From an uncultured Actinomycetes bacterium (GTDB taxonomy: Bacteria > Actinomycetota > Thermoleophilia > Gaiellales > JALYLC01), in the NCBI GenBank assembly GCA_963794695.1, contig CAWCFJ010000007.1:44310-108309 (forward strand): a DNA stretch of 64,000 bases, given 5' to 3'. The notes below the pieces were generated by a model. The model searched no databases and was not told where the DNA came from. It saw only the letters and a program-made list of their open reading frames with translations. Below, in pieces: positions 7,148-59,775 of the stretch; the stretch's first letter is position 1; every line of letters starts with the position of its first letter. Position numbers and translations under genes: made by a program.

Positions 7148-7198
7148 CACGATAGGCCACGCCGGAAGGCGGACGGGCTGGCGGTCGTTGTCGTCCCC

Positions 7199-14031: not shown

Positions 14032-15330
14032 GCGGCCACCAGCAGCGTCCGCTCGGCCAGCGCCGCGATGGACGCGCCGTCGAAGCCGGGGAGCGAGGTG
14101 GCGATGCGGTCGCGCAGCGGCGCCGTCCAGCACTCGGGGATGCCGGAGGCACCGACCCGGGCGCCGAGGATGGAGCCCACGGCGGCGCCGTTCGAGTCCG
14201 TGTCCCAGCCGGCCGCCACGGCGGCGCAGATCGCCGCCCGAGTAGTCGTCGCCGAAGCGGCACAGCACCGCCGCGACGAGCGCGGTGTTGTTGATCGCGT
14301 GCACCCAGTGCAGCTCGCCGAACGCCTGCTCGAGCCCGTCGACGACCCGCTCCCAGTCCGCGTCGCTCTCGGCCAGCGCGCGGGCCGTGCGGATCGCGCC
14401 GGCGAGCCGGGAGCGCGGCGGCACCGCCTCGAGCCCGGCCTCGACGCAGCTCGCGGGCGTCGCGCCGGCCACGGACGCCGCGCTCGCGGCAGCCATGAAG
14501 GTGGCCGCGGAGATCCCGTTGGCGGTGTGGCTCAGCCGCGCGTCGCGGTACGCCAGCGCGGCGGCTGCGCCCGGGTTGCCGGGGCGGGCCCAGCCGTACA
14601 GCTCGACCCGGATCCGGGCGCCGATCCACTCCCGGAACGGGTTCCTGTAGGTCGCCGTCTCGGGCGGCAGAAGGCCCAGCAGGAGGTTGCGGTAGGCGAG
14701 CCGCTCGGCGGTGAACGAGCGACCGGCCGGCATCAGGTCGAGCCACGCCTGGGCCACGTCCTCGGTCGTCAGCGCGTCGCCGTGCTGCTCGAGCAGGTGC
14801 AGCGCCAGCAGCGTGTAGTTGAGGTCGTCGTCCTCGGGCATGCCGTCGATCGTCTCGGCCAGGCTCGTCGCGGCGCTGCGGCGGTTCCAGGGCCAGCGGG
14901 CGGCGACCTCGGCGGGCAGGCCGCGGGCCGTGAACCAGCCGTCGAGCGGCCAGCGGCCCGACGCCTGGAGCAGCTCCCGGATGCCCTCGCGCGGGAGCTT
15001 CTCGACCGGCTTTCCGAGCAGGCAGCCGGCGGCCCGGCCGAGCCAGGCGCCGTGGATCCGGTCGCCGAGATCCGTCGGGGAGGAGCCGCCGGACGCCCCG
15101 GGAGAAGGGAGGTAGACACCCGGGGCGTCCGGCTCGTCGCCGGTCTCTGGGGAGGCTCCGGCGGCAAGCTCGTCGAGCAGCTGCTCGGCCAGGGGACGGA
15201 GGGAGCGGGAGGCGGGCGCAGACGACGCTCCGGCACGGACGGGCGCCTCGTGGCCGCCGGCGGCCCGCCAGCGCTCGGCGGCGTCGCCCACGTCGCGGCC
15301 CTCCTCGCGTGCCTGACGCAGGGCGTGGCC
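14028..15330 (-). CDS. ADP-ribosylglycohydrolase (ARH/DraG-like) family protein, copy 2, with an unusual ~100-aa Pro/Ala/Ser-rich N-terminal extension and a C-terminal frameshift near 14235
   Basis: DRIHGAWLGRAAGCLLGKPVE...NYTLLALHLLEQHGDALTTEDVAQAWL...HAINNTALVAAVLCRFGDDYS. The C-terminal end (AAGWDTDSNGAAVGSILGARVGASGIPECW...) is in the frame of ORF 14028..14219. The start is not resolved. Confidence 0.6.
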
Positions 15331-15356
15331 CACCAGGTCCTCGGGCTGGACCCAGG

Positions 15357-23642: not shown

Positions 23643-23745
23643 ATGACCCGAACGGGGGTTTCATTAGATTCCGGTAGCTGTCATTTCGAGTAAGAGCGGT
23701 TGAACCCCCGACGACCGCGACCCCCACTCCTCGGAGGACCGTTCG

Positions 23746-23847
23746 ATGATCAAGTGGAACCCCCGTCTGTTCAAGGTCGCGAGCATCCTCGCCGCGATCG
23801 GCGCCTTCGCCGTCGCCTCGGGTGCCGGCACCCGCTGGATGACCTAG
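23746..23847 (+). CDS. Small ORF of 33 aa, MIKWNPRLFKVASILAAIGAFAVASGAGTRWMT: hydrophobic mini-protein or leader peptide
   Basis: Strong RBS GGAGGA 8 nt upstream of the ATG. It lies in a locally AT-richer intergenic stretch and is too short for the supplied ORF track. Confidence 0.4.
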   Translation: MIKWNPRLFKVASILAAIGAFAVASGAGTRWMT

Positions 23848-23869
23848 ACCCCTCAAGAGGACGAGGGGT
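23848..23869 (+). terminator. Perfect 7-bp stem hairpin (ACCCCTC-aagaggac-GAGGGGT) immediately after the small-ORF stop. Possible attenuator or intrinsic terminator, with no U-tract
   Basis: Inverted repeat read directly from the sequence. It lies between the small ORF and the GGDEF/HD-GYP gene. Confidence 0.35.
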
Positions 23870-23909
23870 CCGGCCGATAAGCCCGGAGACCCAGCCGTTT
23901 CCAGTGCCG

Positions 23910-25767
23910 AACGCCGCTCCCCGCCCAGCAGCGCACGTCTACGCGCCCCGACTCCAGTGGTACCTGCGCAGCGTCATCGCGATCGCAGCGCCGCTGGTGG
24001 TCGGGGCTGTCGTCGTTCTGGCGCGCGGCGACCACGCGTCGGGCGCGCTGCTCGGGTCCCTGGTCTTCACCGTGGCGGCCGCCGCCGCCGAGCTGAAGCC
24101 CGTCCCGCTCGACGACACCGGCGACCGCAGCGTCTCGCTGGCCTTCGTCTTCCTGCTGGCGAGCCAGATCCTGTTCGGCTGGCCCGTCGCCGTGGTCGGC
24201 GCCGTCGTCTGCATGGGCCTCAGCCAGGCGGTCGAGCGGACCCCGCTCCCGCGCGCGACGTTCAACACCAGCGTCTACGCGCTGTCGGCCTTCCTGTCAG
24301 CCGCGCCGGCGCTGCTCACCGGCTGGGACGGGACGAGCGCCCGCGGCGACTCGTACGCCCTGATCGTGTACGTGTTCGTCGGCGGCGCCACGTTCGTGCT
24401 GGCCAACGTCCTGCTGATCGCGATCGCCGTGTCGCTGTTCCAGGGCACGCCGCTGCGGACGATCGTCGAGGACTACATCGGCCACGCCGGGCCGGCGTTC
24501 GCGATCATGGCGTTCATCTCGGCGCTGGCGACGGCGCTGTGGAAGATCTGGCCGCCGCTCGAGGTGCTGCTCGCCGGGCCGCTGTTCGCGCTCGCGCTGT
24601 ACCAGAGCTACGCCTACCGCTCGCTGGTCGCGACCCGGGATGCCGAGACCGACGGCCTGACCGGCCTGCGCAACCACCGCACGTTCCAGACCGACCTGCA
24701 CGAGTCGCTCGAGGCGGCCGAGTCCGAGCAGGCCTGCCTGGCGCTGGTGATGCTCGACATCGACGACTTCAAGGGGATCAACGACCAGTACGGCCACCCG
24801 ATCGGCGACCAGGTGCTGCGGACGATCGCCGAGGTGCTGGGCGAGATCGCCGGCACCGAGCGGGTCTTCCGGGTCGGCGGCGAGGAGTTCGCGGTGCTCC
24901 TGCCCGAGCGCGGGCCGGCGGCGGCGAAGGAGCTGCTGGACGACGTCCACGCCAGGATCGGCGACACCACGTTCCCGCACGACGAGCGGGTCACGGTCAG
25001 CGCGGGCATCGCCGTCTTCCCCGAGATGGCCGACAGCCGCGACAGCCTGGTGCAGATGGCCGACAGCGCGCTGTACTGGGCCAAGAACCACGGCAAGGCC
25101 CACACCTGCGTCTACTCGAAGGGCATCGACAACGTGCGCCGGCCGAGCGAGATCGCGGTGCTCGCCGAGCGTCACGGGCGCCTGCGGGCGGCCGAGAGCC
25201 TGATCCGGATCGTCGACGCGAAGGACACCTACACCGGCGAGCACTCCCAGTCGGTGAGCCGGCTCGCGGAGGGCATCGCCCGCACCCACGGCCTCGACGC
25301 GAAGACGGTGGAGCAGGTGCGGCTGGCCGCGCTGCTGCACGACATGGGGAAGATCGCGGTGCCCGACCAGATCCTGCAGAAGCCCGGCAAGCTCGATCCC
25401 GACGAGCTCGCGGTGCTGCGCGAGCATCCCGAGCTCGGCTTCCAGCTGCTCGAGGGTCTCGGCGTGGCCCCGGTGGACGCGTGGGTGCGCCACCACCACG
25501 AGTTCTGGGACGGGAGCGGCTACCCGCACGGCCTGCAGGGCGAGGAGATCCCGCTCGGCTCGCGGATCATCCTGGTCGCCGACGCCTTCGACGCGATGAC
25601 CAGCGACCGGGCCTACCGCCGCGGCGGCAGCGTCCGGGACGCCGTCGCCGAGCTGCGGCGCAAGTCGTGGACGCAGTTCGACGCCCGCTTCGTGGCCGCC
25701 CTCGAGGCGTACCTCGGCCGAGCAGGGCATCGCCGACGATCCTCCGTCCACGGCGGCGGTCGGCTGA
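23910..25767 (+). CDS. Membrane-anchored diguanylate cyclase (GGDEF) + HD-GYP phosphodiesterase hybrid protein
   Basis: N-terminal multi-transmembrane domain. GGDEF block RNHRTFQTDL...LDIDDFKGINDQYGHPIGDQVL...RVGGEEFAVLL. HD-GYP block AALLHDMGKIAVPD...HHHEFWDGSGYPHGL. The start (GTG 23910) and end are uncertain. The frame runs on into the next gene, but a TGATG stop/start junction exists at 25765-25769 in the +1 frame. Confidence 0.7.
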
Positions 25768-26312
25768 TGGTGCTCGCCCTCGGAGCCGTGCTGGGCATCC
25801 TCGTCGGGTACGTCCTGGGCGGGAGCCTGCCCCGGCTCGCGGACCTGAAGCTGCGCGGCCTCCCGCTGTTCGGGATCGCGATCGGCCTGCAGCTCCTGGC
25901 CTATCCGCCGAGATGGGCGCCGCCGGACCGGGTCGCGACCTGGATGTGGCTGTCGAGCTACGGCGTGATCATCGTCGTGGCGGTGCTGAACCGGCGCGTC
26001 CGCGGCTTCCCGCTGGCGACGCTCGGGATGCTCTCGAACCTGGCCGCGGTCACGAGCAACGGCGGGCACATGCCGGCGCTGCGCAGCGCGATGGCCGACG
26101 CCGGGGTGGACTTCGGCGTCCGGGCCAACAGCGTGGCCGCGAGCTCGCCGAACCTCCCCTGGCTGATCGACCGCTGGGGCGCGCCGTGGTGGGTTCCCAT
26201 GGCCAACGTGTACTCGGTCGGCGACGTGCTCCTGGCCCTCGGCGCCGTGGTGATCGTGGCCGCCGGGATGGGTGCCCGGCTGCCGCGGCTGCCCCGCCGC
26301 CAGCCTGCCTAG
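25767..26312 (+). CDS. Small integral membrane protein (DUF5317-like?) downstream of GGDEF/HD-GYP
   Basis: MVLALGAVLGILVGYVLGGSLPRLADLKLRGLPLFGIAIGLQLLAY.... The ATG at 25767 overlaps an out-of-frame TGA. Confidence 0.45.
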   Translation: MVLALGAVLGILVGYVLGGSLPRLADLKLRGLPLFGIAIGLQLLAYPPRWAPPDRVATWMWLSSYGVIIVVAVLNRRVRGFPLATLGMLSNLAAVTSNGGHMPALRSAMADAGVDFGVRANSVAASSPNLPWLIDRWGAPWWVPMANVYSVGDVLLALGAVVIVAAGMGARLPRLPRRQPA

Positions 26313-31079: not shown

Positions 31080-31106
31080 CCGCATCCGGGTAGGATCCGC
31101 GCCGAG

Positions 31107-31499
31107 ATGGGATTCGACCAGTATCACGAGCCGCCCGAGGAGCTCCCGAAGGAGACGAGGACGTTCGCCCGCCTGTGCGCGTCGCTGACCGAGGAGGCCG
31201 AGGCGATCGGCTGGTACCAGCAGCGCCTGGCCGTCGAGGCCGACAGCGAGGCCGCCGCGATCATGCGCGACGCCCAGGGCGAGGAGTTCAAGCACTTCTC
31301 CATGGACCTGGAGTTCCTGCTCCGGCGCACGCCGCTGTGGCGCGAGATCGCGAAGGGCATCCTCTTCCAGGAGGGCGACATCGTCGAGCACGGCGAGGAG
31401 GCCGAGGAGGCCGCCGTCGAGGGCGCCAGCGCCCGCGGCGAGCCGCTCGCCGGCAGCGAGTCGCTCGGGATCGGAAGCCTGCGAGGAGCCGCCCGATGA
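31107..31499 (+). CDS. Encapsulated ferritin-like protein (EncFtn-type cargo) with a C-terminal encapsulin targeting peptide
   Basis: YHEPPEELPKETRTF...SLTEEAEAIGWYQQRL...GEEFKHFSMDLEFL matches the EncFtn ExxH and EEAEAI motifs. The C-terminal GSESLGIGSLRGAAR fits the SLGIGSL cargo-loading peptide consensus. Confidence 0.75.
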   Translation: MGFDQYHEPPEELPKETRTFARLCASLTEEAEAIGWYQQRLAVEADSEAAAIMRDAQGEEFKHFSMDLEFLLRRTPLWREIAKGILFQEGDIVEHGEEAEEAAVEGASARGEPLAGSESLGIGSLRGAAR

Positions 31500-32300
31500 G
31501 CCACCTGCTGCGAAGCCACGCCCCGATCACCGAGGCCGGCTGGACCCTGATCGACGAGGAGGCCCGCGAGCGCCTCACGCCGGCGCTCGCCGCGCGCCGC
31601 TTCGTCGACTTCACCGGGCCGCTCGGCTGGGAGCACTCCGCGACCAACCTCGGCCGCGTCCAGGCCGCTCGCCGACGCGCCCGGCGACGGCGTCGAGGCG
31701 TTGCAGCGGCGCATCCTGCCCATCGTCGAGCTGCGCGCGCCGTTCTCGGTCTCCCGCAGCGAGCTGCGCGACGGCGACCGCGGCGCCGACGACGTCGACT
31801 TCGACGCCCTCGACCGGGCCGCCCACCAGATCGCGGTCGCCGAGAACCGGGCCGTGTTCCACGGCTGGTCGGCGGCGGGCATCACCGGGATCACCGAGGC
31901 CTCGAGCCAGAGCCCGATCGCCCTCGGCGACGACTGCGAGCACTACCCGCGGCACGTCGCGCTGGCGGTCGAGGCGCTGCTGCGCGCCGGCATCGACGGG
32001 CCGTACGGCCTGGCGCTCGGCCCGCGGGCCCACACCCGGGTGCTCGAGACCAGCGAGCACGGCGGCTACCCGCTCCTGAACCACCTGCGCGAGATCATCG
32101 GCGGCCCGCTGGTGTTCGCGCCGGGCGTCGAGGGCGCGGTGGTCGTCAGCCTGCGCGGCGGCGACTTCCTGTTCGAGAGCGGCCAGGACCTCTCGGTCGG
32201 CTACTGGGATCACGACGTCGAGGCCGTCAGCCTGTACCTCGAGGAGTCGTTCAGCTTCCGCGTGGTCACGCCCGAGGCGGCCGTCGCGCTCACGCCGTAG
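31496..32300 (+). CDS. Family 1 encapsulin shell protein (linocin M18-like), frameshift near 31665
   Basis: N-terminal MSHLLRSHAPITEAGWTLIDEEARERL. C-terminal ...LYLEESFSFRVVTPEAAVALTP. The start overlaps the EncFtn stop (ATGA). Confidence 0.8.
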
Positions 32301-37305: not shown

Positions 37306-39033
37306 CGTGTCTCCCTTTCGTTTACCTGTCGCGTGCTGTCGTTGCGGAACCAGACCGTGGTGTCGCTGGGAACCGCACCTCCTTCGACGTCGGAACTGGC
37401 GATGAGGACGTGCGCGCCGGCCGGCAGCTCCACCGGGTCCGGGCCGAAGTTGACGAGGCACGCGAAACCGTCGCCCCGCTCGAAGGCGAGGACGGTGTCG
37501 CTCGACGGCAGCCAGCGCAGGCCGTCGTCGTCGCCCCAGGGAGCCGTCCGGCGCAGGCGCAGGCCGGCGCGGTACAGCTCGAGCGTGGAGGAGGGCTGCC
37601 CGGTCTGGGCCGCGACCGTGAGCGCGGCCCAGCTGCCGGGCGGGTCGAGCCAGGGCCGGCCCGGCTCCCTGCGGGCTGAAGCCGTACGGCGGCTCGCCGC
37701 CGTCCCAGGGCATCGGGACGCGGCAGCCGTCGCGGCCGGGATCGACGCCGCCCGAGCGGATCCACATCGGGTCCTGGCGGCGCTCGTACGGGATGTCCTC
37801 GACCTCGGGCAGGCCGAGCTCCTCGCCCTGGTAGACGTACAGCGAGCCCGGCAGCGCCATCACCAGGAGCGCGGCGGCGCGGGCCCGGCGGGTGCCGAGC
37901 GCGAGGTCGGTGGGGGTCCCTTCGCGCCGGGTGGCGAACGCGAACGAGGTGTCCTCGCGGCCGTACCGGGTGACCGGCCGCGTGACGTCGTGGTTCGAGA
38001 GCACCCAGGTCGCGGGGGCGTCGACCGTGGCGTGCATCTCGAGGGTCGCGTCGATCGAGGCCCGCATCGGCGCCGGCTCGAAGGGGCAGGTGAGGAAGTC
38101 GAAGTTGAACGCGGTGTGCAGCTCGTCCTGGCGCAGGTAGCGGGCGAGCCGCTGCGGATCGGGCAGCCAGGCCTCGCCGATCAGGACCCGCGGCTCGACG
38201 TCGGCGTCGGCGATCGCGCGCCAGCGGCGGTAGATGTCGTGCACCTCGTCGCGGTCGACGAACGGGTGCTCGCCGGGCGCCGCGGCGGGATCCTCCTCGG
38301 ACAGCTCGGGATCCTTCACCAGCATCGCCGCGGAGTCGATGCGGATGCCGGCGACGCCCCGGGCGAACCAGAAGTGCAGGACGTCCTCGTGCTCGAGCCA
38401 GACGTCGGGATGCGTCCAGTTCACGTCGGGCTGCTCGGGCGCGAACAGGTGGAGGTACCACTCGCCCGGCGTGCCGTCGGGATTCGTCGTCCGGGTCCAG
38501 GCGGGGCCGCCGAAGATCGACCGCCAGGCGTTCGGCGGCTCGGCGCCGTCGACGCCCTTGCCCGCTCGGAACCAGAAGCGCCCGCGCTCGGGCGCGCCCG
38601 GGGCGGAGTCCAGCGCCGCCTGGAACCACGGGTGCTGGTCGGACACGTGGTTCGGCACGATGTCGACGATCGTCCGGATCCCCAGCGCGCGGGCCTCGGC
38701 GATCAGCCGCTCGGCCTGGGCGAGCGTGCCGAACGACGGCTCGATCGCCCGGTAGTCGGTCACGTCGTAGCCGGTGTCGGCCATCGGCGACGGGTACCAG
38801 GGGTTGAACCAGAGCGCGTCGACGCCCAGCTCGCGGAGGTACGGCAGACGGGCGAGAACGCCGTCGAGGTCGCCGGTGCCGTCGCCGTTCGCGTCGGCGA
38901 AGGAGCGGACGTAGACCTGGTAGACGACCGCGGTGCGCCACCAGCGGTCGGGAACGGGCGGCGCGGCGGGCGCCGCCGGCGCGGCCGCGGGAGGGGCCAG
39001 CGTGGTGCTCGTCGTGGAGCTCGTCTCGGTCAC
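37302..39033 (-). CDS. GH13 alpha-glucosidase / oligo-1,6-glucosidase family (AglA-like), at least 2 frameshifts in the C-terminal third
   Basis: WWRTAVVYQVYVRSFADANGDGTGDLDGV...GVDALWFNPWYPSPMADTGYDVTDYRAIEPSFG...IVDIVPNHVSDQHPWF. The C-terminal ...TTVWFRNDSTRQVNERETR* is only found in a third frame, and its stop overlaps the substrate-binding-protein start. Confidence 0.7.
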
Positions 39034-39062
39034 GGCGACGACGATCGCATACTTGACTTCCA

Positions 39063-39070
39063 CTTGCAAG
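39063..39070. promoter_or_regulatory. Self-complementary CTTGCAAG core upstream of the GH13 start, candidate LacI operator
   Basis: ...acttgacttccaCTTGCAAGgacttgacgaaaatcgtgcagg.... The same half-site TGCAAG recurs upstream of lacI at 41281, 41301 and 41331. Confidence 0.35.
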
Positions 39071-39229
39071 GACTTGACGAAAATCGTGCAGGATATCGGA
39101 TCGCGACGGCGCAGGAAGTGTGGGACGCGTGACGGGAAAGCGGCCTGCGGCGGGCTGTCAGCGCGACCGGAGAGGGGTCGGCAGGGCGGGTTGCGGGACG
39201 ACCAGCGCGACCGGCGCGGATGCGGCGGG

Positions 39230-39835
39230 CAGCGAAGGTGGCGCCTGCTCGAGCGCGCTCCGCCGGGCGCTGGTCGAGCCACGGCAAGCCGCCCGCGGCA
39301 CGTCCGAGCGCGACCGCGCCCCGGAGAGCGCTGGTAGCGAGGCCTGTAGTGCGCTGCGCAGCACGGGCCGCGGAGCTCGTCCCGCCAGGGACGAGCGCGG
39401 CCCTGCCGGTGATCCGACGCCAAGGAGCGCTCCGAACCCGAGGACGCGCTCGACCGGAAGTCGGATCACCGGCTTGAAAGGGCCGCCCCTCTCCACGGGT
39501 CCCAGGTGGCGCCCTGCTCGGACGGCGAGCGCTCCGCCCGGGCGGCTGGTCGAACCACGGCAAGCGGCACCGACGGCAAGTCCGAGCGCGACCACGCCCC
39601 GAAGAGCGCTGGTAGCGAGGCCTGTAGTGCGCTGCGCAGCACGGGCCGCGGAGCTCGTCCCGCCAGGGACGAGCGCGGCCCTGCCGGTGATCCGACGCCA
39701 AGGAGCGCTCCGAACCCGAGCACGCGCTCGACCGGAAGTCGGATCACCGGCTTGAAAGGGCCGCCCCTCTCCACGGGTCCCAGGTCGCGCCCTGCTCGGA
39801 CGGCGGGCGCTCCGCCAGGGCGCTGGTCGTAGTTC
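39230..39835. repeat. Tandem direct repeat of ~274 bp, about 2.2 copies, rich in internal long inverted repeats, inside the 1.25-kb noncoding region between the GH13 operon and its lacI
   Basis: Copies start near 39269 and 39543 (e.g. ...CTGGTCGA[G/A]CCACGGCAAGC...AGCGCTGGTAGCGAGGCCTGTAGTGCGCTGCGCAGCACGGGCCGCGGAGCTCGTCCCGCCAGGGACGAGCGCGGCCCTGCCGGTGATCCGACGCCAAGGAGCGCTCCGAACCCGAG...GTCGGATCACCGGCTTGAAAGGGCCGCCCCTCTCCACGGGTCCCAGGT...). Each copy has a 9-bp hairpin GCTCGTCCC/GGGACGAGC and an 11-bp-arm stem GGTGATCCGAC...GTCGGATCACC. Confidence 0.8.
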
Positions 39836-39954
39836 GGCTCGCCGCTCTCGTGCTTGCCGCGCCCGTGCCTGCCGTGCTCGTACGAACCATCGCTGCGCCT
39901 GAATCGGGGTCGGTACGCAGACCTCCCAAGCGACGAAGAACCGGGCCCAACCAC

Positions 39955-40018
39955 AGTCGGTGATCCGACTTCCCGTCGAGCGCGTCCTCAGGTTCGTTGC
40001 GTTGCCTTGGCGTCGGAT
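39955..40018. repeat. Third, inverted and diverged copy (~85% identity) of the 63-bp GGTGATCCGAC...GTCGGATCACC stem-loop module
   Basis: The reverse complement of the module in the tandem repeat aligns with ggtgatccgacttcccgtcgagcgcgtcctcaggttcgttgcgttgccttggcgtcggatcacc. Confidence 0.6.
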
Positions 40019-40059
40019 CACCGACAGGCCCGGTTGAGGGGCTTCGCCCTTCTTGCCGG

Positions 40060-40275
40060 GTCCTCTCCGGGTCGCGCTGGCTGCTTGCCGCTGTCCGGCC
40101 TGCCGGGACCGTTGCGGGTCGCGCTGGCCGGTCGCCTCGGCCCGGCCTGCCGGGTCCGCGTTGCGGGTAGCGCGCTGGCTGCTCACCGTCTGGCCCGGCT
40201 TGCCGAGACCTGCTCCGGGGTCGCGCTGGTCGCCCGCTGCAGCCGGGTACCTCTCCGGGTCGCGCTGGCCCCGCT
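40060..40275. repeat. Array of five GGGT(C/A)GCGCTGG(C/T) motifs at 40-55 bp spacing
   Basis: Motif copies lie near 40065, 40113, 40157, 40215 and 40253. The flanking sequences are themselves semi-repetitive (cggcctgccgggaccgttgc / cggcctgccgggtccgcgttgc). Confidence 0.5.
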
Positions 40276-40285
40276 CCTCGCGCCT

Positions 40286-41298
40286 CTACGCCGGCGCGGC
40301 GGTCCTGACCGGCGCGGCCGCGGTCGAGCCTCTCGCGACCAGCTCGGGGTCGAAGAACAGCTCCTCGGCCGCCACCTCGGCTCCCTCGATCTGGCTCGCC
40401 AGCATCGCCACCGCGGCCCGCCCGATCGCCTCGATCGGCTGCCGCACCGTCGTCAGCGGCGGGTCGGTGTAGTTCATCAACGCGGAGTCGTCGTACCCCA
40501 CCACCGAGACGTCGCCGGGCACCGACAGGCCGGCCCTGCGCACGGCCCGCATCGCACCGAGCGCCAGCGGGTCGCTCGCACAGATGATCCCGGTCGCGCC
40601 CTGGCGTATCAGCCGCGTCGCGGCGGCGTGGCCGCCCTCGAGCGAGAACATCGTCCGCTCGACGAGCTCGCCGTCATGGGCGTCGCCGTTCGCCGCCACC
40701 GCGTCCGCGAACGCCTCGAGCTTGCGCCGCGACGGCACGTGGTCCGACGGCCCGGTGATCACCCCGATCCGCTCGTGCCCGAGCGACACCAGGTGCCCGT
40801 ACGCCTGCTCCATCGCCACCGCGTCATCCGTCGACACCCGCGGGAACTGCAGGTGCTCGGCCGCCGCGTTCACCAGCACCACCGGCAGCCGCAGCTTCAG
40901 CAGCCGCAGGTAGTGGTCGTGCGGCGCGTCGGCCTCCGCGTACTGCCCACCCGCGAACACCATCCCCGACACCTGCCGGTCGAGCAGCATGTCGACGTAC
41001 TCGGCCTCCGAGATCCCGCCCGTCCTCGTGCACAGCACCGCGTTGAAGCCACGCTGGGCGAGCGCCCCGCCGACCACGTCCGCGATCGCCGGGAAGATCG
41101 GGTTCTGCAGCTCGGGGACGACCAGCCCGATCATCCGCCCGCGCCGCACCCGAAGGCGCGTCGGACGCTCGTAGCCGATGACGTCCAGCGCCGTGAGGAC
41201 GGCCGCACGCGTGGCGTCCGAGATCCCGGGCTTGTCGTTGAGGACACGACTGACCGTCGCCTCGCTCACCCCGGCCTGCTTCGCGACGTCTGCAAGGT
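40286..41298 (-). CDS. LacI family transcriptional regulator
   Basis: The GTG at 41298 begins VAGNLADVAKQAGVSEATVSRVLNDKPGISDATRAAVLTALDVIGYERP (HTH). A periplasmic-binding-protein-like effector domain follows. Confidence 0.8.
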
Positions 41299-41300
41299 TC

Positions 41301-41324
41301 CCGGCCACGCTGCAAGTGTATGGC
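41301..41324. promoter_or_regulatory. Palindrome TGCAAG-N12-CTTGCA immediately upstream of lacI, a candidate autoregulatory operator. TGCAAG half-sites also lie at 41281 and 41331
   Basis: tgcaagtgtatggcagcgcttgca lies in the 50-bp gap between lacI and the upstream ANT-like gene. Confidence 0.35.
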
Positions 41325-41349
41325 AGCGCTTGCAGGACAATGCAAGTTT

Positions 41350-42124
41350 TCAGCCGGAAGTCAGCTGGATCCGCGCCGTTATTGCGGCGGCCGCGGCGGC
41401 GGCCTGCCCCTGTCGGGCGTCCCAGTCGTCCTCGGCCTCGCCGCGGTACGCGGCGGCGGCAAGCTCCAGCACGCTCGCGCGCCTCGCCGGGCAGCTGGCC
41501 GGCGGCCCAGCTCGCCGCCTCGTCCTTCGGCCGGATCTCGCCCGTCTCGACCGTGTACCAGACGCGGGCCAGCGTGAGCAGGACGTTGCGGGTGTCGGGC
41601 TCGAGGTTCGCGAGCAGGTCGTCGACGCCCTCGGTCACGGCCTGCGCCAGGTCGGCGCCGGGGATCGGGTCGAGCAGGTCCCGCGGCGGCGGCCCGAGCA
41701 GCGGCACGCCGGCCATCAGCACGATCGCGATCAGCGTCGTCATGTCGGGACTCGGCTGGTGCCGGAACGGGGCGAGGTCGCCCGCCTCGAGGTCCCGGCG
41801 GAGCCACTCGCCGTAGAGCAGGTCGCGGTCCGCCGGGTGGCGCCACGGACGCACGTCGTCGTGCACGGCGACGCTGAGCTCGATCGGCCGTCCCGGGCGT
41901 TCGACCGAACGCACGCCCGAGGCGGCGAGGATCCGGGCCAGCAGGCGCGGGCGCTCGGCGTCGTCGAGCCGCCGCCGCGAGAGCGCCAGCAGGTCGAGGT
42001 CGCTCTCGGGCCGCAGGCCGCCGAGCACTGCCGAGCCGTACAGGTAGACGGCGAGCAGGTCGTCCCCGAGCGCCTCCCGCAGCGCGTCGACGACGTCGCC
42101 GAGCTGGCGCCGGTCGTCAGGCGA
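41350..42124 (-). CDS. Aminoglycoside nucleotidyltransferase, ANT(3'')/ANT(9) aadA-like (nucleotidyltransferase + DUF4111 domains), frameshift near 41475
   Basis: LGDDLLAVYLYGSAVLGGLRPESDLDLLAL is the nucleotidyltransferase motif. ...VLLTLARVWYTVETGEIRPKDEAASWA.... The C-terminus SVLELAAAAYRGEAEDDWDARQGQ...QLTSG* is in the alternate frame and ends at stop 41350. The start is uncertain. Confidence 0.6.
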
Positions 42125-43011
42125 GACGGATGGCGCGCTTGCCTCGCGTGTGCTGCCCGGCGAGGTCTGCGAGAGCCGCTCCGGCATCCGCGAGATCGTA
42201 GGTGCGCTGGATCGGGACCCGCAGATCGGGCAGCAACCGGGCGAGGCGCTGCAGGTTGTCGGTCGACGAGATCGCCATCACGTTCACCCGCCCCGGCCCG
42301 TCGCCGGCCGCGCCGAGCGGCGAGGAGGCGCGCCCGCCGGGCGTCAGGGCGGCGGCGTTGGCGGCGAAGTCCTCGCCGCTGGTGGCGGTGTCGATCAGCG
42401 CGTCGATCCCCGACGGGCAGCGCGCTCCCGCGGGCCACGAACTCGTCCGCGCCGAGCTCGAGCACGAACTCCTCGTCCTCCGGCGAGGCGACCGCGATGA
42501 CCGTCGCCCCGGCGCGGGCGGCGAGCTGCACCGCGAACGCGCCGACGCCGCCGTTCGCGCCGACCACGGCGACGCGCTCGCCGGCCGACGGCGCGACGCC
42601 CTCGACCAGCAGCAGCGCCGTGACGCCGGCGAGCACCGCCGCGCCGGCCGCGTCCATCCCGACGCCGTCGGGGATCGCGGCCACGAACCCGTCGGCGGAG
42701 ACGACGATGCGCTCGGCCCAGGCGCCGTCGTGGACGTCGGCCCCGACGTGCGGCACGAGGCCGAAGACCTGGTCGCCAACGGCGAACCCGCCGGCCGCGT
42801 GCTCGACGACGCCGGCGAAGTCGCGGCCGAGGGTCACCGGGAAGCGGTGCTCGGCCATGCTCTTCAGGTAGCCGGCGACGATCGCGTTGTCGACCGGGTT
42901 CGCGGAGGACGCCTGGACGCGCACCAGGAGCTCGCCGTCGCCGGGGACGGGATCGTCGAGGTCCTGCAGCGCGGGCGGGGCGTCGAACGCGGGGAGCACG
43001 AACGCCTTCAC
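42117..43011 (-). CDS. NADPH:quinone reductase / MDR-family oxidoreductase, frameshift near 42410
   Basis: The GTG at 43011 has RBS AAGGAGA. VKAFVLPAFDAPPALQDLDDPVPGDGELLVRVQASSANPVDN.... The C-terminal end IDALIDTATSGEDFAANAAALTPGG...GKRAIRLA is in the frame of ORF 42117..42779. Confidence 0.7.
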
Positions 43012-47627: not shown

Positions 47628-48638
47628 CTAGACCAGGGTCCGGAACCAGCGCAGCGAGAACGCGAAGCCGAGCAGCGCGAGGGCGCCGCCGCCGGCGATG
47701 AACAGCCGGCTCAGGTCCTGGTTCTGCTTCTGCGTGCCGACGGTCTTGCCGATCTGGCCGTAGACCGACTTCAGCCTGCTCGCGTTCTGGGCGGTGTAGG
47801 TCTTGCCGCCGGCGGCCTTGGCGATCTTCGCCAGGGCGGCCGGATCCGGCGGCACGGCGATCGTCTTGCCCGTTCCCGGGTCGACGACGCTGCCCGCCGG
47901 CGTTCCGAGCGAGATGGTGTAGATCGGGATCTTGCGGGCCTTCGCCATGCGGGCGGCCGCGAGCGGCGAGACCTTGCCCTCGGTGCTCGTGCCGTCGGTG
48001 AGCACCACGATCGCCGCCGGCGCGCGGGTCGACTTCGTCGCGGTGCCGGTCTGCTTCGGCACCAGCGACAGGCCGCGCACCAGGCCGTCGCCGAGAGCGG
48101 TGCCGCCGCCGACCTGCAGCGAGCGGAGCGAGCCCTCGATCACGGTGCGGTCGTCGGTGGGGGCGTTCAGCGCGTGGGCCACGCGGGTGAAGGCCACGAT
48201 GCCGACGCGGCCGTCGTCGGGCAGCGCCGACACCAGCGTGCGGGCGGCGGCCTTGGCCGCCTCGAGCCGGGTCGGCTTGACGTCGGTCGCCGACATCGAG
48301 CGGGAGGTGTCGATGACCAGGATCACCGTCGCCTGGTGGCGCGGCACGGTCGTCTCGCGCTGCGGCTTCGCGGCGCCGCCGACCAGCGCGGCCAGCGCGA
48401 GCAGCATGATCACCGGCGCGACGTGGCGGCGCCAGCTGGCCCGCCGGGGGATCAGGTTCGGCAGCAGCGCCGGGTTCGCGAAGCGTGCGATCGTCCGCCC
48501 CTGACGCCGCTCGTGGATCGCGTAGAGCACCAGCGCGACGGGCAGGGCGAACAGGATCAGGAGCACCAGCGGGGCGGCGAACTCCACCTGCCTCACGTAG
48601 TGCATGGCGCTGTGGTACCAGCTCTCGACGGTGTTCAC
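47628..48638 (-). CDS. VWA domain-containing protein (BatB-like)
   Basis: N-terminal transmembrane helix. VWA block ...VILVIDTSRSMSATDVKPTRLEAAK...TALGDGL.... C-terminal transmembrane helix. Confidence 0.8.
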   Translation of the reverse strand: MNTVESWYHSAMHYVRQVEFAAPLVLLILFALPVALVLYAIHERRQGRTIARFANPALLPNLIPRRASWRRHVAPVIMLLALAALVGGAAKPQRETTVPRHQATVILVIDTSRSMSATDVKPTRLEAAKAAARTLVSALPDDGRVGIVAFTRVAHALNAPTDDRTVIEGSLRSLQVGGGTALGDGLVRGLSLVPKQTGTATKSTRAPAAIVVLTDGTSTEGKVSPLAAARMAKARKIPIYTISLGTPAGSVVDPGTGKTIAVPPDPAALAKIAKAAGGKTYTAQNASRLKSVYGQIGKTVGTQKQNQDLSRLFIAGGGALALLGFAFSLRWFRTLV

Positions 48639-49618
48639 GTCAGGGCGCTCCGGGAGGCGACGGTCAGGATCCCGGCCAGCGCGAGCAGCGCGGCGCCGGC
48701 GGCGGCGAAGTCGTACGAGACGTCCTGGTGCTGGCGCTGCGAGCCGACCCGGGTGCCGATCTTGTCGTACACCTTGCTCAGGGCGTTCTCGTCGGCCGCG
48801 GCGAAGAACTCGCCGCCCGTCTCGCGGGCGACCGCCTGCAGCGTCGACGGATCCGGCGGCACCGGCGTGGAGTTGCCGAGCCCGCCGAGGTCGACCGTGC
48901 CGTACGGCGTGCCGAAGGAGATCGTGTAGATGCGGACGCCGAGCGCCTTCGCCCGGGCTGCGGCCTCCATCGGGTCGGTGCCGTCGGTGTTGGCGCCGTC
49001 CGACAGCAGCAGGATCACGCGGCCGCTCGGGTTGACCGTGCCGCCCGTGGTGCGGGCCGCCGCGGCGCCCTGGCCGGTGACCTGCAACGCGAGGTTGATG
49101 CCGTCGCCGATCGCCGTCCCGCCGTCGGCGTTCAGGTTCGCGAGCGCGCTCTTCACCGGCGCGCGGTCACGGGTCGGGGCGACGGCCACCGAGGCGGTCG
49201 AGTTGAACGGCACCAGGCCGACCTCGAACTGCGAGGGCAGACGGTTCACGAAGTCGGTGGCGGCCTTCGTGGCCGCGGCGATGCGCGACGGCGGCACGTC
49301 GGCGGCGACCATCGAGCCCGAGGTGTCCATCACGAGCATCACCGAGGCGCGCTTCTTGGCCACGGTCTTGTCCACCTGCGGGCGGGCCAGGCCGAGGATC
49401 AGCGCGCCGAGGGCGGCGAGCAGCACGCCCCAGCGCAGGAAGCGCCGCCACGACGTCACCGGCGTGGCCACGGAGCGCAGGAGCTCGACGTTCGAGAAGG
49501 CGACCGCGTAGCGGGCCCGGCGCTTGCGCGACCACAGCTCGAGCAGGACGAGCAGCGGCAGGAGCACGAGCGCCAGCAGCACCAGCGGCTCGGCGAAGCT
49601 GATTCCGTGGAAGGTCAC
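48635..49618 (-). CDS. VWA domain-containing protein (BatA-like)
   Basis: ...VMLVMDTSGSMVAADVPPSRIAAATKA...TAIGDGINLAL.... Confidence 0.8.
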   Translation of the reverse strand: MTFHGISFAEPLVLLALVLLPLLVLLELWSRKRRARYAVAFSNVELLRSVATPVTSWRRFLRWGVLLAALGALILGLARPQVDKTVAKKRASVMLVMDTSGSMVAADVPPSRIAAATKAATDFVNRLPSQFEVGLVPFNSTASVAVAPTRDRAPVKSALANLNADGGTAIGDGINLALQVTGQGAAAARTTGGTVNPSGRVILLLSDGANTDGTDPMEAAARAKALGVRIYTISFGTPYGTVDLGGLGNSTPVPPDPSTLQAVARETGGEFFAAADENALSKVYDKIGTRVGSQRQHQDVSYDFAAAGAALLALAGILTVASRSALT

Positions 49619-50550
49619 CGGCCACGCCTCCGGCGGGCCATCGCCGCCAGCAGCGGCTTCAGCCACTCGCCCTCGGTGGGCAGGACCAGGTGCTCGGCGC
49701 CGGCGCGGCGCACGGCCGCGGCCTGCCGGGCCCGGTCGTCGGCGGCGGCCTGCGCGAAGCGCTCGCGCAGACGCTTGCTGCGGGTGTCGACGCGCAGCTG
49801 CTTGCCGGTCTCGGGGTCGACCAGGGCGAGCTCGCCGACGTTCGGCAGCTCGTCCTCGCGCGGGTCGCGCATCTCGATCACCAGGACGTCGTGGCGCGCC
49901 GCGAGGCGAGCCAGCGGCATCGCCCAGTCGGTCGGGCCGCGCAGGTCGGTCAGGATCGAGAGGTGCGACGTCTGGCGCGCGTACTTGAAGGTGCGCTCGA
50001 GCGCGTCGCCCAGGGAGGTCGCGCCGTTCTCGCCGGGGTCGGCCTCCTGGCGCAGCGTCAGCAGCGTGCCGACCAGACCGGCGCGCCCCTGCCGGGGCCG
50101 GACCATCGCCGGCGAGGCGCCGCCGAAGGTCACCAGGCCGAGCCGGTTGCCGCGGCGGCTGGCGACGTTGCCGAGCGCCAGCACCACGCCCTCGGCGACG
50201 TCCGCCTTGCGCCGGTCGGCCGAGCCGAAGTGCATGGAGGCGGAGGTGTCGAGCACGAGCCACGCGGTGAGGGCCCGCTCGGCGACGTCGACCCGGACGT
50301 GCGTCTCGCCCGTGCGGGCGGTGGCGTTCCAGTCGATCCGGCGGACGTCGTCGTCACCGGGCACGTACGCCCGGAGCTGGGCCAGCTCGGTGGCCTCGCC
50401 GAGCTGCGCCGAGCGGAACTCGCCTGCCAGCAGCGCGGTGATCCGGCGGCGCACGGCCAGGTCGAGGGCCCGCAGCGCCCCTTCGGGCAGCGGGCCGGGA
50501 CCCGGCCGGGCGGCGGTGCGGACGGGCGTGAGGGCGGCGAGACCGGACAC
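49615..50550 (-). CDS. DUF58 domain-containing protein
   Basis: ...VRRIDWNATARTGETHVRVDVAERALTAWLVLDTSASMHFG.... Confidence 0.75.
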   Translation of the reverse strand: MSGLAALTPVRTAARPGPGPLPEGALRALDLAVRRRITALLAGEFRSAQLGEATELAQLRAYVPGDDDVRRIDWNATARTGETHVRVDVAERALTAWLVLDTSASMHFGSADRRKADVAEGVVLALGNVASRRGNRLGLVTFGGASPAMVRPRQGRAGLVGTLLTLRQEADPGENGATSLGDALERTFKYARQTSHLSILTDLRGPTDWAMPLARLAARHDVLVIEMRDPREDELPNVGELALVDPETGKQLRVDTRSKRLRERFAQAAADDRARQAAAVRRAGAEHLVLPTEGEWLKPLLAAMARRRRGR

Positions 50551-50553
50551 GGG

Positions 50554-56325: not shown

Positions 56326-56733
56326 ACGCGTGGTGGCCGGCCTCCGCCGCGGGTGGAGGCCGGCCACCTAATCGCCCCCTGTCTAGGGATGCGCACGTAC
56401 TCCTTTCACGTACCCTCCGTGCGATGGTCTCCGCGATCCGCCACCACGGCGTGCACGCCGACTGGTCGGGTGGGGCGATCAACGCCCACCTCGACGCGAA
56501 CCTGAAGGCTCAGGCTGCCGGCACGCGTGCCCAGATCCAGCAGCGAGCGGACTCGGAGACCCTGCAGGACATGTGGCGAAGCCAGCGGAGCCTGCTGGAT
56601 CTTCTCGCGTAGGGCGGCTACGCTCCGCGCCGCCGATCCAGCCTCGGCACGGTGACACCACAAGCAAGGGTGACAATAGGTCTTTCTTGCCCCGTGCGGG
56701 AAGGATGGGCGGCATGACGAGGATGCAGCTGCT

Positions 56734-59136
56734 GTGAGGACCGGGCAGCGTCGGGTTCGAGGGGTCGAGACCGAAGGACGAGAGCGGGCCGAGGGCGTGC
56801 TCGTGCTGCGCGCGGTCCGAGACCGTCAGGGTCGGGTGACCGACTTCCAGCACGTCCAGGTGGACGCCGGAGCGGCGGACCTGCTCGGCCGCTCGGCCAG
56901 CGAGCTCGAGGGCAGCAGGCTGCTCGAGGCGGCAGACGTCGCCTCCAGCGACCGCTTCGCGACGTACCGCCGGCTCCTGCTCACCCGCGAGTCGATCACC
57001 GGCGACCTCGTCGTGCGCACCACGAGCGGAGCCGAGCGCCGGCTGTCCCACGAGGCCTCGGCCAGCGGCGACCACGTCCTCGTGACGCTGCGCGAGCGGC
57101 GCGGCGAGGCAGACACCCAGCCGCACGTCGACGATGCGCCGTTCCTGCTGATCGGCTCGCTGCCGGACGCCCTCCTGGCGTACACCCCCGAGGGCCTGAT
57201 CGAGTGGGCCAACCCGGCCGCCGAGGTGCTGTTCGACGTGCCCGCCGCGAAGCTCCGCCACCAGCCGCTCGACACGGTGATCGCGTCGCGCAGCGGGGCG
57301 AGCCTGCTCGAGCCGGCGCACCTCGTCCCGGGCATCCACGAGGTGCTCGGCCGCCGGCCCGACGGGACCAGCTTCCCGGCCCGGCTGGCGGTGGCCCGGC
57401 TGCAGGACCGCGGACGCGTCCTGCTCGGGGCGACGGTGCAGGACATCTCCGAGCAGAAGCGGGCCGAGCGCGAGTACCGGCTGCGCGAGGAGGCGCTGCG
57501 CCAGCTGGCCGACGAGCAGTCCCAGCTGCACGTGGCCCAGGCGGCGCTGTCCCACGAGCAGGCCACGCTGCGGCGGATCGCGACCCTGGTCGCCTCGACG
57601 ACCGACCCGGACGTCGTCATGCACGGCGTGGCCCACGAGGTCGCCCGGCTCGTCGGCGCCGACGTCGGCCTGGTGGTGCGCTTCGACGGCGAGCGCGGCA
57701 CGGTCGCCGGCCTGCACGGAGAGGACCTGCTGCCCGGCGGCCTGGTGGGCGCGACCGCGCCGCTGCGCGGCGACGGCATGCTGGCCCGGATCGCCGAGCG
57801 CGACGGGCCGGTGCGCGGCGAGCTCCTCGAGCTGGTCGTCGCGGACTCGCTGCGCATGCTCGAGGTCGCCGCCGTCGGCGCGCCGGTGCGGCTCGGCGGT
57901 CGCGCCTGGGGCGCCGTGGTCGCCGTGAGCAAGCGCCGTGACGTCTTCGCGCGCGAGACGGAGCCGCGGCTGGCGCGTGCCGCCGAGCTCGTCGGGGTGG
58001 CCATCTCGAACGCCGAGGCCTGGCAGGCGCTCTCGCGCCAGGCCGCCAGCGACCCGCTGACCGGGCTGGCGAACCACCGCACGTTCCACGAGCAGCTCCG
58101 GCTCGAGGTCACCCGCGCGCGGCGCTACGACCGGCCGCTGGCGCTGGTGCTGCTCGACCTCGACCACTTCAAGCAGATCAACGACACCTACGGGCACGCC
58201 GCCGGCGACCAGGTGATCCAGGAGATCGCGCGCCGCCTGCGCGGCCAGGCCCGCGACGGCGAGCTCGTCGCCCGGATCGGTGGCGAGGAGTTCGCCTGGC
58301 TCCTGCCGGAGTCGGACGACGAGGGCGCCCGCACCGCGGCCGAACGCGTCCGCCAGGTGGTCATCGCGGCGCCGTTCTCGGCCGCCGGGCGGCTGACGAT
58401 CTCGGCCGGCGTCGCCGACCTGGCCCACGCGGGCACGCCCGAGCAGCTCTTCCAGCTCGCCGACGCCGCGCTCTACGCGGCCAAGGCCCGGGGCCGCAAC
58501 AACGTCATCCGGGCGAGCGAGGTCGGGTCGCGTCCGAGGCCCCAGCCACGCATCGACCGCTTCAACGCCCTCGCCGGCCTGCGGGCCCTGGCCCGGGCGG
58601 TGGACGCCAAGGATCCGTCGACCCAGCGCCACTCCGAGCGGGTCGCCGAGCTCGCCTGCCGGCTGGCCCAGGTGCGCGGCTGGCCGTCGGCCCGCTGCGA
58701 GCAGCTGCGCGAGGCGGGCCTGGTGCACGACGTCGGCAAGATCGGCGTGCCCGACGCGGTGCTCTACAAGTCGGGCGGGCTGACGTCGGACGAGCGGGCC
58801 CAGATCATGCTGCACGCGGCGCTCGGCGCGGCGATCGTGTCGGAGGTGCTGTCGCTCGAGCAGGTGCGCTGGATCCGCCACCACCACGAGCGCTTCGACG
58901 GCCGCGGCTACCCCGACAGCCTGGGCGGCGACGACATCGACGAGGGCGCCCGGCTGCTCGCGCTGGCCGACGCCTGGGACGCGATGACGGTGGCCCGGCA
59001 CTACGCGCCGCGGATCCCGCCGTCCGAGGCGATCGAGCTGTGCGGGACGCTCTCGGGCACGCAGTTCGCGCCGGAGGCCGTCGACGCCCTGCGCGAGCTC
59101 TGGGACGCCGGCGAGCTGCGCGACGAGCTGAGCTAG
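56734..59136 (+). CDS. Cytoplasmic PAS-PAS-GAF-GGDEF-HD-GYP multidomain c-di-GMP signalling protein
   Basis: Intact 800-aa ORF. ...DPLTGLANHRTFHEQL...LDLDHFKQINDTYGHAAGDQVI...RIGGEEFAWLL (GGDEF). ...GLVHDVGKIGVPD...HHHERFDGRGYPDSL (HD-GYP). Confidence 0.85.
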   Translation: MRTGQRRVRGVETEGRERAEGVLVLRAVRDRQGRVTDFQHVQVDAGAADLLGRSASELEGSRLLEAADVASSDRFATYRRLLLTRESITGDLVVRTTSGAERRLSHEASASGDHVLVTLRERRGEADTQPHVDDAPFLLIGSLPDALLAYTPEGLIEWANPAAEVLFDVPAAKLRHQPLDTVIASRSGASLLEPAHLVPGIHEVLGRRPDGTSFPARLAVARLQDRGRVLLGATVQDISEQKRAEREYRLREEALRQLADEQSQLHVAQAALSHEQATLRRIATLVASTTDPDVVMHGVAHEVARLVGADVGLVVRFDGERGTVAGLHGEDLLPGGLVGATAPLRGDGMLARIAERDGPVRGELLELVVADSLRMLEVAAVGAPVRLGGRAWGAVVAVSKRRDVFARETEPRLARAAELVGVAISNAEAWQALSRQAASDPLTGLANHRTFHEQLRLEVTRARRYDRPLALVLLDLDHFKQINDTYGHAAGDQVIQEIARRLRGQARDGELVARIGGEEFAWLLPESDDEGARTAAERVRQVVIAAPFSAAGRLTISAGVADLAHAGTPEQLFQLADAALYAAKARGRNNVIRASEVGSRPRPQPRIDRFNALAGLRALARAVDAKDPSTQRHSERVAELACRLAQVRGWPSARCEQLREAGLVHDVGKIGVPDAVLYKSGGLTSDERAQIMLHAALGAAIVSEVLSLEQVRWIRHHHERFDGRGYPDSLGGDDIDEGARLLALADAWDAMTVARHYAPRIPPSEAIELCGTLSGTQFAPEAVDALRELWDAGELRDELS

Positions 59137-59149: not shown

Positions 59150-59653
59150 CTAGAAGCGCCCGGGGCGGCTGTCGCGCTCTTCGCGCACGCCCCGGATGAG
59201 CGCGTTCAGCGCGTCGATCCGCTCGTCGTCCTGGGCCCGGTCGCGCGCGGCCTCGGCGGCCCGCTCGGCGTTCCCGTCGCTCGAGCGCTCCCACCAGGCG
59301 TGCCACTCGTGGATCCGCAGCCGGTCGGTCGGCGCGAGCCGGTCGAACGTGAACGCCACCTCGCTGCGGCCGCCGTCGGCCTGCTCGCTGCGCACGACCC
59401 GGGCGCGGATGCCCGCGTCGCCGCGCATGGTCGGCGTGAAGACGATCCGCAGCACGTCGCCGACGCTGAGCACCCGGCCGACGCTGAGCGCGCGGCAGCC
59501 GTGCTCCGAGACGTCGAGGCAGACGAGCTTGACCGCCTCCTTCGGGGCGACCGAGCCGTCCTCGCCGTGCGCGTGCATGAACACGCGGTTGACGGCGACG
59601 CGGCGCGCGCTGCGCCGGTCCGTCAGGCGGCGGAAGCCGAGCCCACGGCTCAT
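59150..59653 (-). CDS. PilZ domain protein (c-di-GMP receptor)
   Basis: FRRLTDRRSARRVAVNRVFMHAHGEDG...CLDVSEHGCRAL matches the PilZ RxxxR and (D/N)xSxxG motifs. Convergent with the GGDEF/HD-GYP gene. Confidence 0.55.
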   Translation of the reverse strand: MSRGLGFRRLTDRRSARRVAVNRVFMHAHGEDGSVAPKEAVKLVCLDVSEHGCRALSVGRVLSVGDVLRIVFTPTMRGDAGIRARVVRSEQADGGRSEVAFTFDRLAPTDRLRIHEWHAWWERSSDGNAERAAEAARDRAQDDERIDALNALIRGVREERDSRPGRF

Positions 59654-59775
59654 CGGTCCGCCTCGCAGCGGAGCTGGGTCGTCGCGAGGTGCTGCATGGG
59701 ACCAGGATCTCGCATCCGGGAGGCCGCGGCAGTCCCTCAGGGGGGTGATCCGGAGCGTGACCTACAGTTGCCGGG

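Follow-up and report, generated by a model that had tools for sequence, protein, structure and literature searches.

Between the gene for a MalR-type LacI-family regulator and the gene for a GH13 alpha-glucosidase, the 64-kb window analysed here (the whole stretch of 64,000 nucleotides from an uncultured actinobacterium of the Gaiellales) contains a long gap filled with structured repeats. This gap is probably one locus of a lineage-specific, non-coding, modular repeat family, non-autonomous and selfish in the manner of repetitive extragenic palindromes (REP), bacterial interspersed mosaic elements (BIME) and REP doublets forming hairpins (REPIN), or of the BOX elements. The element is filed as a new family of a known kind of repeat rather than as a REP, because it departs from strict REPs in features that are taken up below. 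Structured repeats of the dispersed kind have been described well in Proteobacteria and in Firmicutes, but hardly at all in uncultured soil Actinobacteria, for which this family provides an alignable example.

Alignment with copies from other contigs has revealed that the locus contains two kinds of paralogous cassette facing each other, a unit of 278 nt on the plus strand and module I on the minus strand. The common plan of a cassette (about 210-280 nt) includes a CAGCGCGACC box, one or two small hairpins (H0 and H1 in the units, H1' in module I), a long hairpin (H2), a weak hairpin (H3) and a linker rich in CGGCAAG. H2 is 90-100 nt long and is built of an outer stem of 7-10 bp, an internal loop, a conserved lower stem of 14 bp and a variable apical part. 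The 47-nt array unit consists of box and linker, with the hairpins absent. The order along the locus is box units (+), units A and B (+), linker, module I (-) and about five box units (-) (Table 1).

Several of these components had been described in a first-pass annotation made from the sequence alone. The tandem repeat that it reported is present, with a period of 278 rather than 274 (39255-39829, 2.1 copies and 95% matches by Tandem Repeats Finder, TRF), and its ungapped core (39296-39544 versus 39574-39822) is 97% identical between the copies. Its perfect 9-bp hairpin, GCTCGTCCC-GCCA-GGGACGAGC, is found exactly in both units as H1, about 0.02 chance matches being expected. A stem with 11-bp arms was also correctly recognized, but the perfect arms are 14 nt long; the 11-nt arms GGTGATCCGAC / GTCGGATCACC form three exact inverted pairs (39408/39460, 39686/39738 and 39959/40012), and no further exact copies of them are present elsewhere in the window. 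The inverted third copy of the stem-loop exists, its arms (39955-40001 and 40005-40032) being 87-93% complementary to the units, although it extends further than had been proposed, over about 39868-40053. In the array of five motifs next to lacI, GGGTCGCGCTGG is exact four times (at 40069, 40116, 40218 and 40257), whereas the fifth, near 40165, has an insertion; TRF places this array at 40054-40229 with a period of 47 and 3.6 copies. CAGCGCGACC, the reverse complement of GGGTCGCGCTGG, occurs also at 39159 and 39203 on the GH13 side of the units, where it had been overlooked.

Table 1. Features of the lacI-GH13 gap and of its borders in the 64-kb window.
Feature	Position	Strand	Description
GH13 alpha-glucosidase gene	starts 39033	-	Pfam Alpha-amylase, E = 5.5e-88
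GH13 promoter/operator region, outside the element	39034..39100	-	ACTTGAC, ACTTGCA, ACTTGAC at 39051-39078
Two box + linker units beside the GH13 promoter	39141..39229	+	CAGCGCGACC at 39159-39168 and 39203-39212; inverted relative to the lacI-side array
Tandem unit A, 278 nt	39255..39532	+	linker, box-like GAGCGCGACC at 39307, H0, H1, H2, H3
Hairpin H0, unit A	39341..39369	+	GGCCUGU-AG-UGCG-CUG-CGCA-GC-ACGGGCC; unit B copy 39619-39647
Hairpin H1, unit A	39375..39396	+	perfect 9-bp stem; unit B copy 39653-39674
Long hairpin H2, unit A	39397..39486	+	outer stem GCGGCCC/GGGCCGC; 14-bp lower stem GCCGGTGATCCGAC/GTCGGATCACCGGC; unit B copy 39675-39764
Weak hairpin H3, unit A	39508..39533	+	unit B: GCGCCC...GGGCGC at 39787-39810
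Tandem unit B	39533..39810	+	core 97% identical to unit A, seven substitutions
Junction/linker between the facing cassettes	39811..39891	-	start of a third partial unit; 15-nt CGGCAAG-type repeats at 39837-39874
Module I	39868..40053	-	H1' 40036-40052; H2' with outer stem 39939-40035; H3' 39893-39920; tail 39877-39891
Module I tail	39877-39891	-	conserved GATGGTTCGTACGAG with near-palindrome TTCGTACGAG
47-nt box + linker array, about five units	40054..40269	-	begins 17 nt past the lacI stop codon
CCAGCGCGACCC in the array	40069-40080, 40116-40127, 40218-40229, 40257-40268	-	variant near 40165
MalR-type LacI-family regulator gene (lacI)	40286..41308	-	GTG start at 41308; Pfam LacI and Peripla_BP_1/3

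Homologous cassettes, with 80-96% identity, are present at five other metagenomic loci with unrelated neighbours, so that the module does not occur here alone. A cassette lies after guaA and a membrane-protein gene in L013 and beside an ABC-2 permease gene and the gene for a small secreted protein in L010; in L019, a lone module I precedes an M16 peptidase gene, and in L020 one unit is faced by a variant module I, with a PhdYeFM/PIN toxin-antitoxin pair on one side and a hydrolase gene on the other. The fifth, the P0126 locus, which is known from a protein match and its gene context, adjoins the atp operon. All seven loci of known context are intergenic. When the translation of the longest open reading frame (ORF) within the gap (342 aa, minus strand) was used as bait, eight protein matches were obtained, for example P0121, P0122 and P0124, all from one 534,986-bp contig, and P0123 from a 287-kb contig. 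The window ORF 39030-39701(-) and P0124 are the same sequence, which assigns the window to the 534,986-bp contig; this source contig thus carries at least two further loci, P0121 and P0122. P0121, P0122 and P0123 all read the module I tail and then two or three units; this arrangement matches that of the window, which indicates that the facing composite is the repeated entity. The density of copies amounts to at least three loci on the 535-kb source contig and one on the 287-kb contig, with one locus in the 64-kb window. A covariance model of H2 and H3 scores the known copies at 100-143 bits (module I at 140.6 bits), but these copies are its training set; a search of the window and all fetched loci with this model gave no extra diverged copies. 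At the tail of every module I (window, L010, L019 and L020), the near-palindrome TTCGTACGAG, with a CGTACG core, is kept. It occupies the middle of the facing composite and is richer in AT than any other conserved spot; judging from the sequence, it is a candidate site of recognition or cleavage.

The element is an insertion at the lacI-GH13 site and is absent there from more distant relatives. The homologues of LacI are of soil metagenomic origin, and names are attached only to those from Gaiellales metagenome-assembled genomes (MAGs), which have 84-86% identity. The spacer between lacI and the GH13 gene is 1.25 kb in the window, as against 185 bp in L006/L007 and 51 bp in L009 (LacI identity 86% in both cases), and the gene order in these element-less relatives is unchanged. 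A closer relative, L005 (LacI identity 98%), has a spacer longer than that of the window, comprising the element and an insertion of an IS3-family insertion sequence (IS), and its box array is longer and of different composition. In L021 (LacI identity 96%), the contig stops 72 nt past the lacI stop in array-like sequence. Contigs L005, L010, L013 and L021 all end inside the element, as would be expected because repeats break assemblies. Recognizing the family should therefore improve the annotation of these MAGs, in which it breaks short-read assemblies and breeds spurious protein calls of 200-400 aa.

Two further observations concern the same site. The IS3-family insertion in L005 (about 6517-7950; rve and HTH_21, itself frameshifted) lies at the 3' foot of H3 in the module I tail, with an apparent 3-bp duplication (CAG) and the ends TGGGAGTTACC... 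/ ...GGCAACTCCA. In the element-less L006 (about 7015-7030) and L007 (about 3566-3581), the last lacI codons hold the 10-mer CAGCGCGACC, which could be chance, the seed of an array or a preferred target.

As the first-pass annotation had noted, the gap has no protein-like frame. Third-position GC within it is at most 0.88, with no stable frame throughout, in comparison with 0.94-1.00 in the flanking genes. ORF translations of the gap gave no match in Pfam, and the tandem period of 278 is not divisible by 3, which counts against coding. On these three grounds a coding region has been ruled out. The matching entries P0121-P0131, "hypothetical proteins" of 98-403 aa that are rich in arginine, alanine, glycine and proline and none of which has a Pfam domain, are annotation artefacts of gene callers reading through the repeat.

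The predicted hairpins differ in stability. H2 is exceptionally stable in all variants, with folding energies between -51 and -65 kcal/mol and z between -4.2 and -8.1 relative to dinucleotide shuffles (-64 kcal/mol and z = -8.0 for H2 of unit A, z = -4.2 for H2' of module I); H1 has z = -5.9 and H0 z = -2.2, whereas H3 is thermodynamically not significant (z = +0.6). A whole unit folds with z = -4.99 as RNA of the plus strand, -3.5 as that of the minus strand and -4.25 as DNA. The whole of module I is not significant on its canonical strand (z = -0.6) and has z = -2.1 on the opposite strand. From ten copies, RNAalifold predicts 40 pairs, 13 of which show double (compensatory) changes, as against 6.2 in shuffles, and 94.7% of cells are paired, as against 87.7% in shuffles; neither observed value was reached in any of 500 shuffles. 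These figures are to be read with the scope of the data, ten sequences with few independent events, and with the structure derived from the same sequences. Controls in which the structure was slid along the alignment are 28-43% paired.

Individual changes can be followed in the copies. In L020, the variant arms CCGGTGTTTCGGC/GCCGAGACACCGG have three pairs changed from the canonical ones, all compensated, as well as one wobble. Between the units and module I, the outer stem has changed from G-C to C-G and the junction pair from C-G to U-A. H1 shows T-A to A-T between the window and L020, and in L005 and L020 it has been swapped for a different but pairing sequence. The apical part of H2 is wholly different in L010 and L005 and still folds (z = -6 to -8). 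Compensatory changes are thus present, which speaks against a mere recent duplication. The lacI genes of the window and of L005 share 98.5% identity and their elements about 89-90%, the differences being clustered in the hairpin tops as multi-base replacements that still pair. Pairing has been kept while the element diverges several-fold faster than the adjacent gene, which makes the family useful for separating structural selection from template-switch mutagenesis.

How does the element compare with known repeat systems? It resembles the REP, BIME and REPIN sequences of Proteobacteria (PMC2817692, PMC3333891, PMC3116915) in its extragenic, GC-rich palindromic modules, which form mosaic clusters with both module orientations and variable linkers (here in the window, L005, L020, P0121, P0122 and P0123). 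Other common features are a variable tandem copy number, complementary mutations that preserve pairing, and inverted pairs as the commonest arrangement. REP sequences are also targets of IS insertion (PMC1525189), and here the foot of H3 in L005 has received the IS3-family element. On the other hand, a REP is an imperfect palindrome of about 20-40 nt with a GT(A/G)G head (PMC2817692), whereas here a cassette of 210-280 nt carries a hairpin of 90-100 nt with 14-bp arms 41 nt apart. H2 has no GT(A/G)G head, and only the small H0 has GTAG followed by a short palindrome (TGCGC-T-GCGCA), possibly by chance. In addition, the observed density is far lower than that of REPs and the host is an actinobacterium. 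No gene for the REP-associated tyrosine transposase (RAYT) was seen among the surveyed ORFs of the window, and one of the REP papers cited above found homologues of RAYT and REP in no other major bacterial lineage.

The element shares with BOX of Streptococcus pneumoniae a modular, intergenic organization, a variable number of internal modules and a stable predicted structure, and for both there is neither an encoded protein nor a known mobilisation mechanism. BOX, however, consists of boxA, boxB repeated n times and boxC, is rich in AT, measures about 100-200 nt and occurs in more than 100 copies. It has no sequence relationship to the present element, in which the cassettes are arranged face to face between separate arrays of short units. 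The 47-nt array is comparable to the mycobacterial interspersed repetitive units (MIRUs) and other variable number tandem repeats as an intergenic tandem repeat of the 40-100-bp class, situated in a co-directional gene cluster right after a stop codon and varying in copy number between close relatives (window versus L005). The MIRUs of Mycobacterium, for which a consensus of their own and short overlapping ORFs are the defining features, are without long hairpin cassettes such as accompany the array here.

Miniature inverted-repeat transposable elements (MITEs) such as Correia/NEMIS are likewise non-coding and dispersed, with presence or absence at orthologous sites, and are symmetrical by inversion on a large scale, so that their transcription would yield long double-stranded RNA. 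The first-pass annotation had offered a MITE/REP-like element as one of its explanations, and in substance this is borne out by the other loci, the absence at the site in relatives and the compensatory changes. The dispersed repeat is supported, less so a MITE in the strict sense: no terminal inverted repeats or target-site duplication were recognized by eye and no parent IS was identified, and the element is a composite of 0.7-1.25 kb with internal tandem repeats. A clustered regularly interspaced short palindromic repeat (CRISPR) array, in which exact repeats of 23-47 nt alternate with unique spacers, was rejected, as only 12 nt are exact here and whole 47-nt units, would-be spacers included, are about 75% alike. 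A plasmid or phage origin was rejected as well, blastn against plasmid and phage collections giving no match to the element. A literature search on REPIN/RAYT in Actinobacteria and on repeats of the Gaiellales found no papers.

The favoured reading, a non-autonomous repeat, can be formulated as follows. The repeat would spread into intergenic DNA, often just past stop codons, with H2 as the structure that is recognized or propagated. After arrival it would grow by slippage and unequal recombination and exchange sequence with its paralogues. At the lacI-GH13 site it would serve at most as a transcriptional insulator or as an RNA-stabilising 3' structure for lacI.

Several points weigh against this reading. 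A survey of about 40 gene-like ORFs in the window yielded neither a transposase nor a Y1/RAYT gene. By eye, no terminal inverted repeats or duplicated target site could be made out, and the empty sites in relatives are too diverged for base-exact comparison; the boxes are inverted at the two ends of the window locus and direct in L020. With at least three loci per 535 kb, the observed density is far below that of classical REPs, which exceed 100 copies per genome. The family is rare altogether: a full HMMER scan of 1.84 billion representative proteins gave 11 ORF matches, intact arms were found in only two contigs (L010 and L013) of 241 million metagenome records, and an intact family H2 was found in none of 185,579 species-representative genomes. 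Template switching from arm to arm can yield compensatory changes without selection, and the covariation rests on few independent events in only ten sequences.

The other hits of the exact-arm scans have been set aside. None of the four loci from the genome scan belongs to the family: L001, L003 and L004 share another hairpin of Streptomycetaceae, and L002 is unrelated. Among the nine loci of the metagenome scan, L016 and L017 are fold-back palindromes at contig ends, and the rest, apart from L010 and L013, look like chance or unrelated hairpins. The Streptomycetaceae hairpin (L001 3467-3533, L003 5249-5315 and L004 244-310) is long and near-perfect, with the same 11-nt arms GGTGATCCGAC but otherwise different; the flanks of L001 and L003 match in reverse orientation, so that these two are the same locus. 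The sharing of arms between this hairpin and the family is probably a coincidence.

On a more far-reaching reading, which is rather unlikely, the four-hairpin cassette, and the facing pair of module I and units in particular, might be the transposing unit of a new actinobacterial hairpin-dependent mobile element, served by an enzyme unrelated or only distantly related to the proteobacterial RAYTs, or else represent a new class of multi-copy structured RNA of about 250 nt.

A related proposal is that the cassette is a multi-copy structured RNA, transcribed in the mRNAs of its neighbours or from a promoter of its own, in which H2 would act as a 3'-end stabiliser or terminator, a substrate of RNase III, or a sponge for small RNAs or proteins. 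The conservation of pairing with compensatory changes and the very stable folds would suit such an RNA. In the window, L005 and L013, a gene upstream of module I runs in the same direction and ends with its stop codon 0-17 nt before it; at most loci module I is co-directional with at least one neighbouring gene, and some variants form a C(UUCG)G-type loop on one strand. However, Rfam 15 gave nothing relevant for the window region at E <= 10, and other copies gave only sub-threshold matches to miRNA precursors (35 bits for the L010 hairpin against a gathering score of 83), so that a known RNA family has been rejected. A scan for promoter and terminator consensus sequences was negative, though of little value at 73% GC, the GC content of the window. 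The units and module I lie on opposite strands at one locus, and thus no one transcript could contain the two in the same orientation. Nor does the pairing point to a strand: G-T/G-U wobbles number six against three A-C in H2 and the outer stem, which identifies no functional strand, and for H1' as well as for the complete module I the more stable fold is that of the opposite strand. The apical part of H2, moreover, is freely replaced. Of the duplicated small RNA or riboregulator put forward in the first-pass annotation, the duplication and the pairing are therefore upheld, whereas the RNA identity is backed neither by an Rfam match nor by a wobble asymmetry that names a strand. Taken together, an RNA function of the cassette is rather unlikely but still a serious rival.

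It is very improbable that the region is the remnant of a decayed gene, a recent duplication of purely local extent with no wider family, or an artefact of assembling a repeat. Units A and B are 95-97% identical, from which it follows that their duplication is recent; the assembly bears signs of indel errors, and public gene callers put ORFs over the region. Nevertheless, the same architecture is seen at the same locus in the independent assembly L005 and the cassettes are found in other contexts. The matches include no homologous real protein, only the 11 sequences of the same composition as the query and without a Pfam domain, and a period that is not a multiple of 3 does not suit a former gene.

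Least credible of all, to the point of being nearly dismissed, is that the GGGTCGCGCTGG array and the palindromic arms are binding sites for LacI or another regulator of the GH13/ABC-transporter operon, the multi-site scaffold for the adjacent LacI that had been suggested earlier. What could be said for it is that the motifs are regularly spaced (about 47 bp), that the inverted arms of 11-14 nt are 52 bp apart and that the gap has a regulator gene on one side and, on the other, the operon that this regulator probably controls. Yet identical boxes and arms stand beside unrelated genes in other contigs and are wholly absent from relatives with orthologous lacI-GH13 loci, and L020 has canonical and compensated variant arms on one contig, which fits pairing better than the half-site of a single protein. 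The core to which MalR and AcrC bind is CTTGCAG, in direct or inverted repeats (PMC5526262), and GGGTCGCGCTGG and GGTGATCCGAC bear no resemblance to it. Motifs of this type (CTTGCA/CTGCAAG/CTTGCAG, ACTTGCAttgtcCTGCAAG...ACTTGCAG) are instead present in the lacI promoter at 41311-41347, directly upstream of lacI, and the GH13 promoter core has a near-match only, ACTTGCA at 39062-39068; element-less relatives retain related CTGCAA/CTTGCA promoter motifs. With the candidate operators at the promoters, the scaffold is unsupported. As far as this operon is concerned, the element has been inserted upstream of a promoter/operator that is intact, and it stands outside the regulatory logic of LacI. It separates the lacI stop from this GH13 promoter/operator. 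Apart from a possible block to read-through from lacI, its effect on regulation is probably small.

The genes that flank the gap, lacI and the GH13 gene, are both on the minus strand, and downstream of the GH13 gene are the genes for a sugar-binding protein and at least one ABC permease. The lacI gene had been given as 40286..41298; the gene is confirmed, with its start corrected to the GTG codon at 41308. The GH13 gene (37341-38946, -) is split across two reading frames near 37590-37655, and its orthologue in L006 is matched by frame -3 over residues 13-467 and by frame -1 over residues 443-547. This is either a frameshifted pseudogene or an indel error. Overlapping same-strand ORFs with high third-position GC elsewhere in the window (12078-16598 and 47628-50553) suggest indel errors in the assembly.

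A similar irregularity is seen upstream of lacI. The gene for an AadA-like nucleotidyltransferase (AadA_C, NTP_transf_2) reads into lacI as one ORF without a stop (40286-42187, -), and likewise in L005 (4243-5985), where an AadA-like/LacI fusion has been called as the 580-aa protein P0001. This is probably a frameshift or gene-calling artefact and not a real fusion. Farther away, the window contains an encapsulin pair (31080-32297, +), an EncFtn-like gene followed by the shell gene (Linocin_M18), of a ferritin-type nanocompartment. Genes for cyclic-di-GMP signalling are indicated by two large proteins with GGDEF and HD-GYP-type (HD_5) domains at 23694-26309 and 56680-59133 (+) and by a PilZ-domain protein at 59153-59761 (-).

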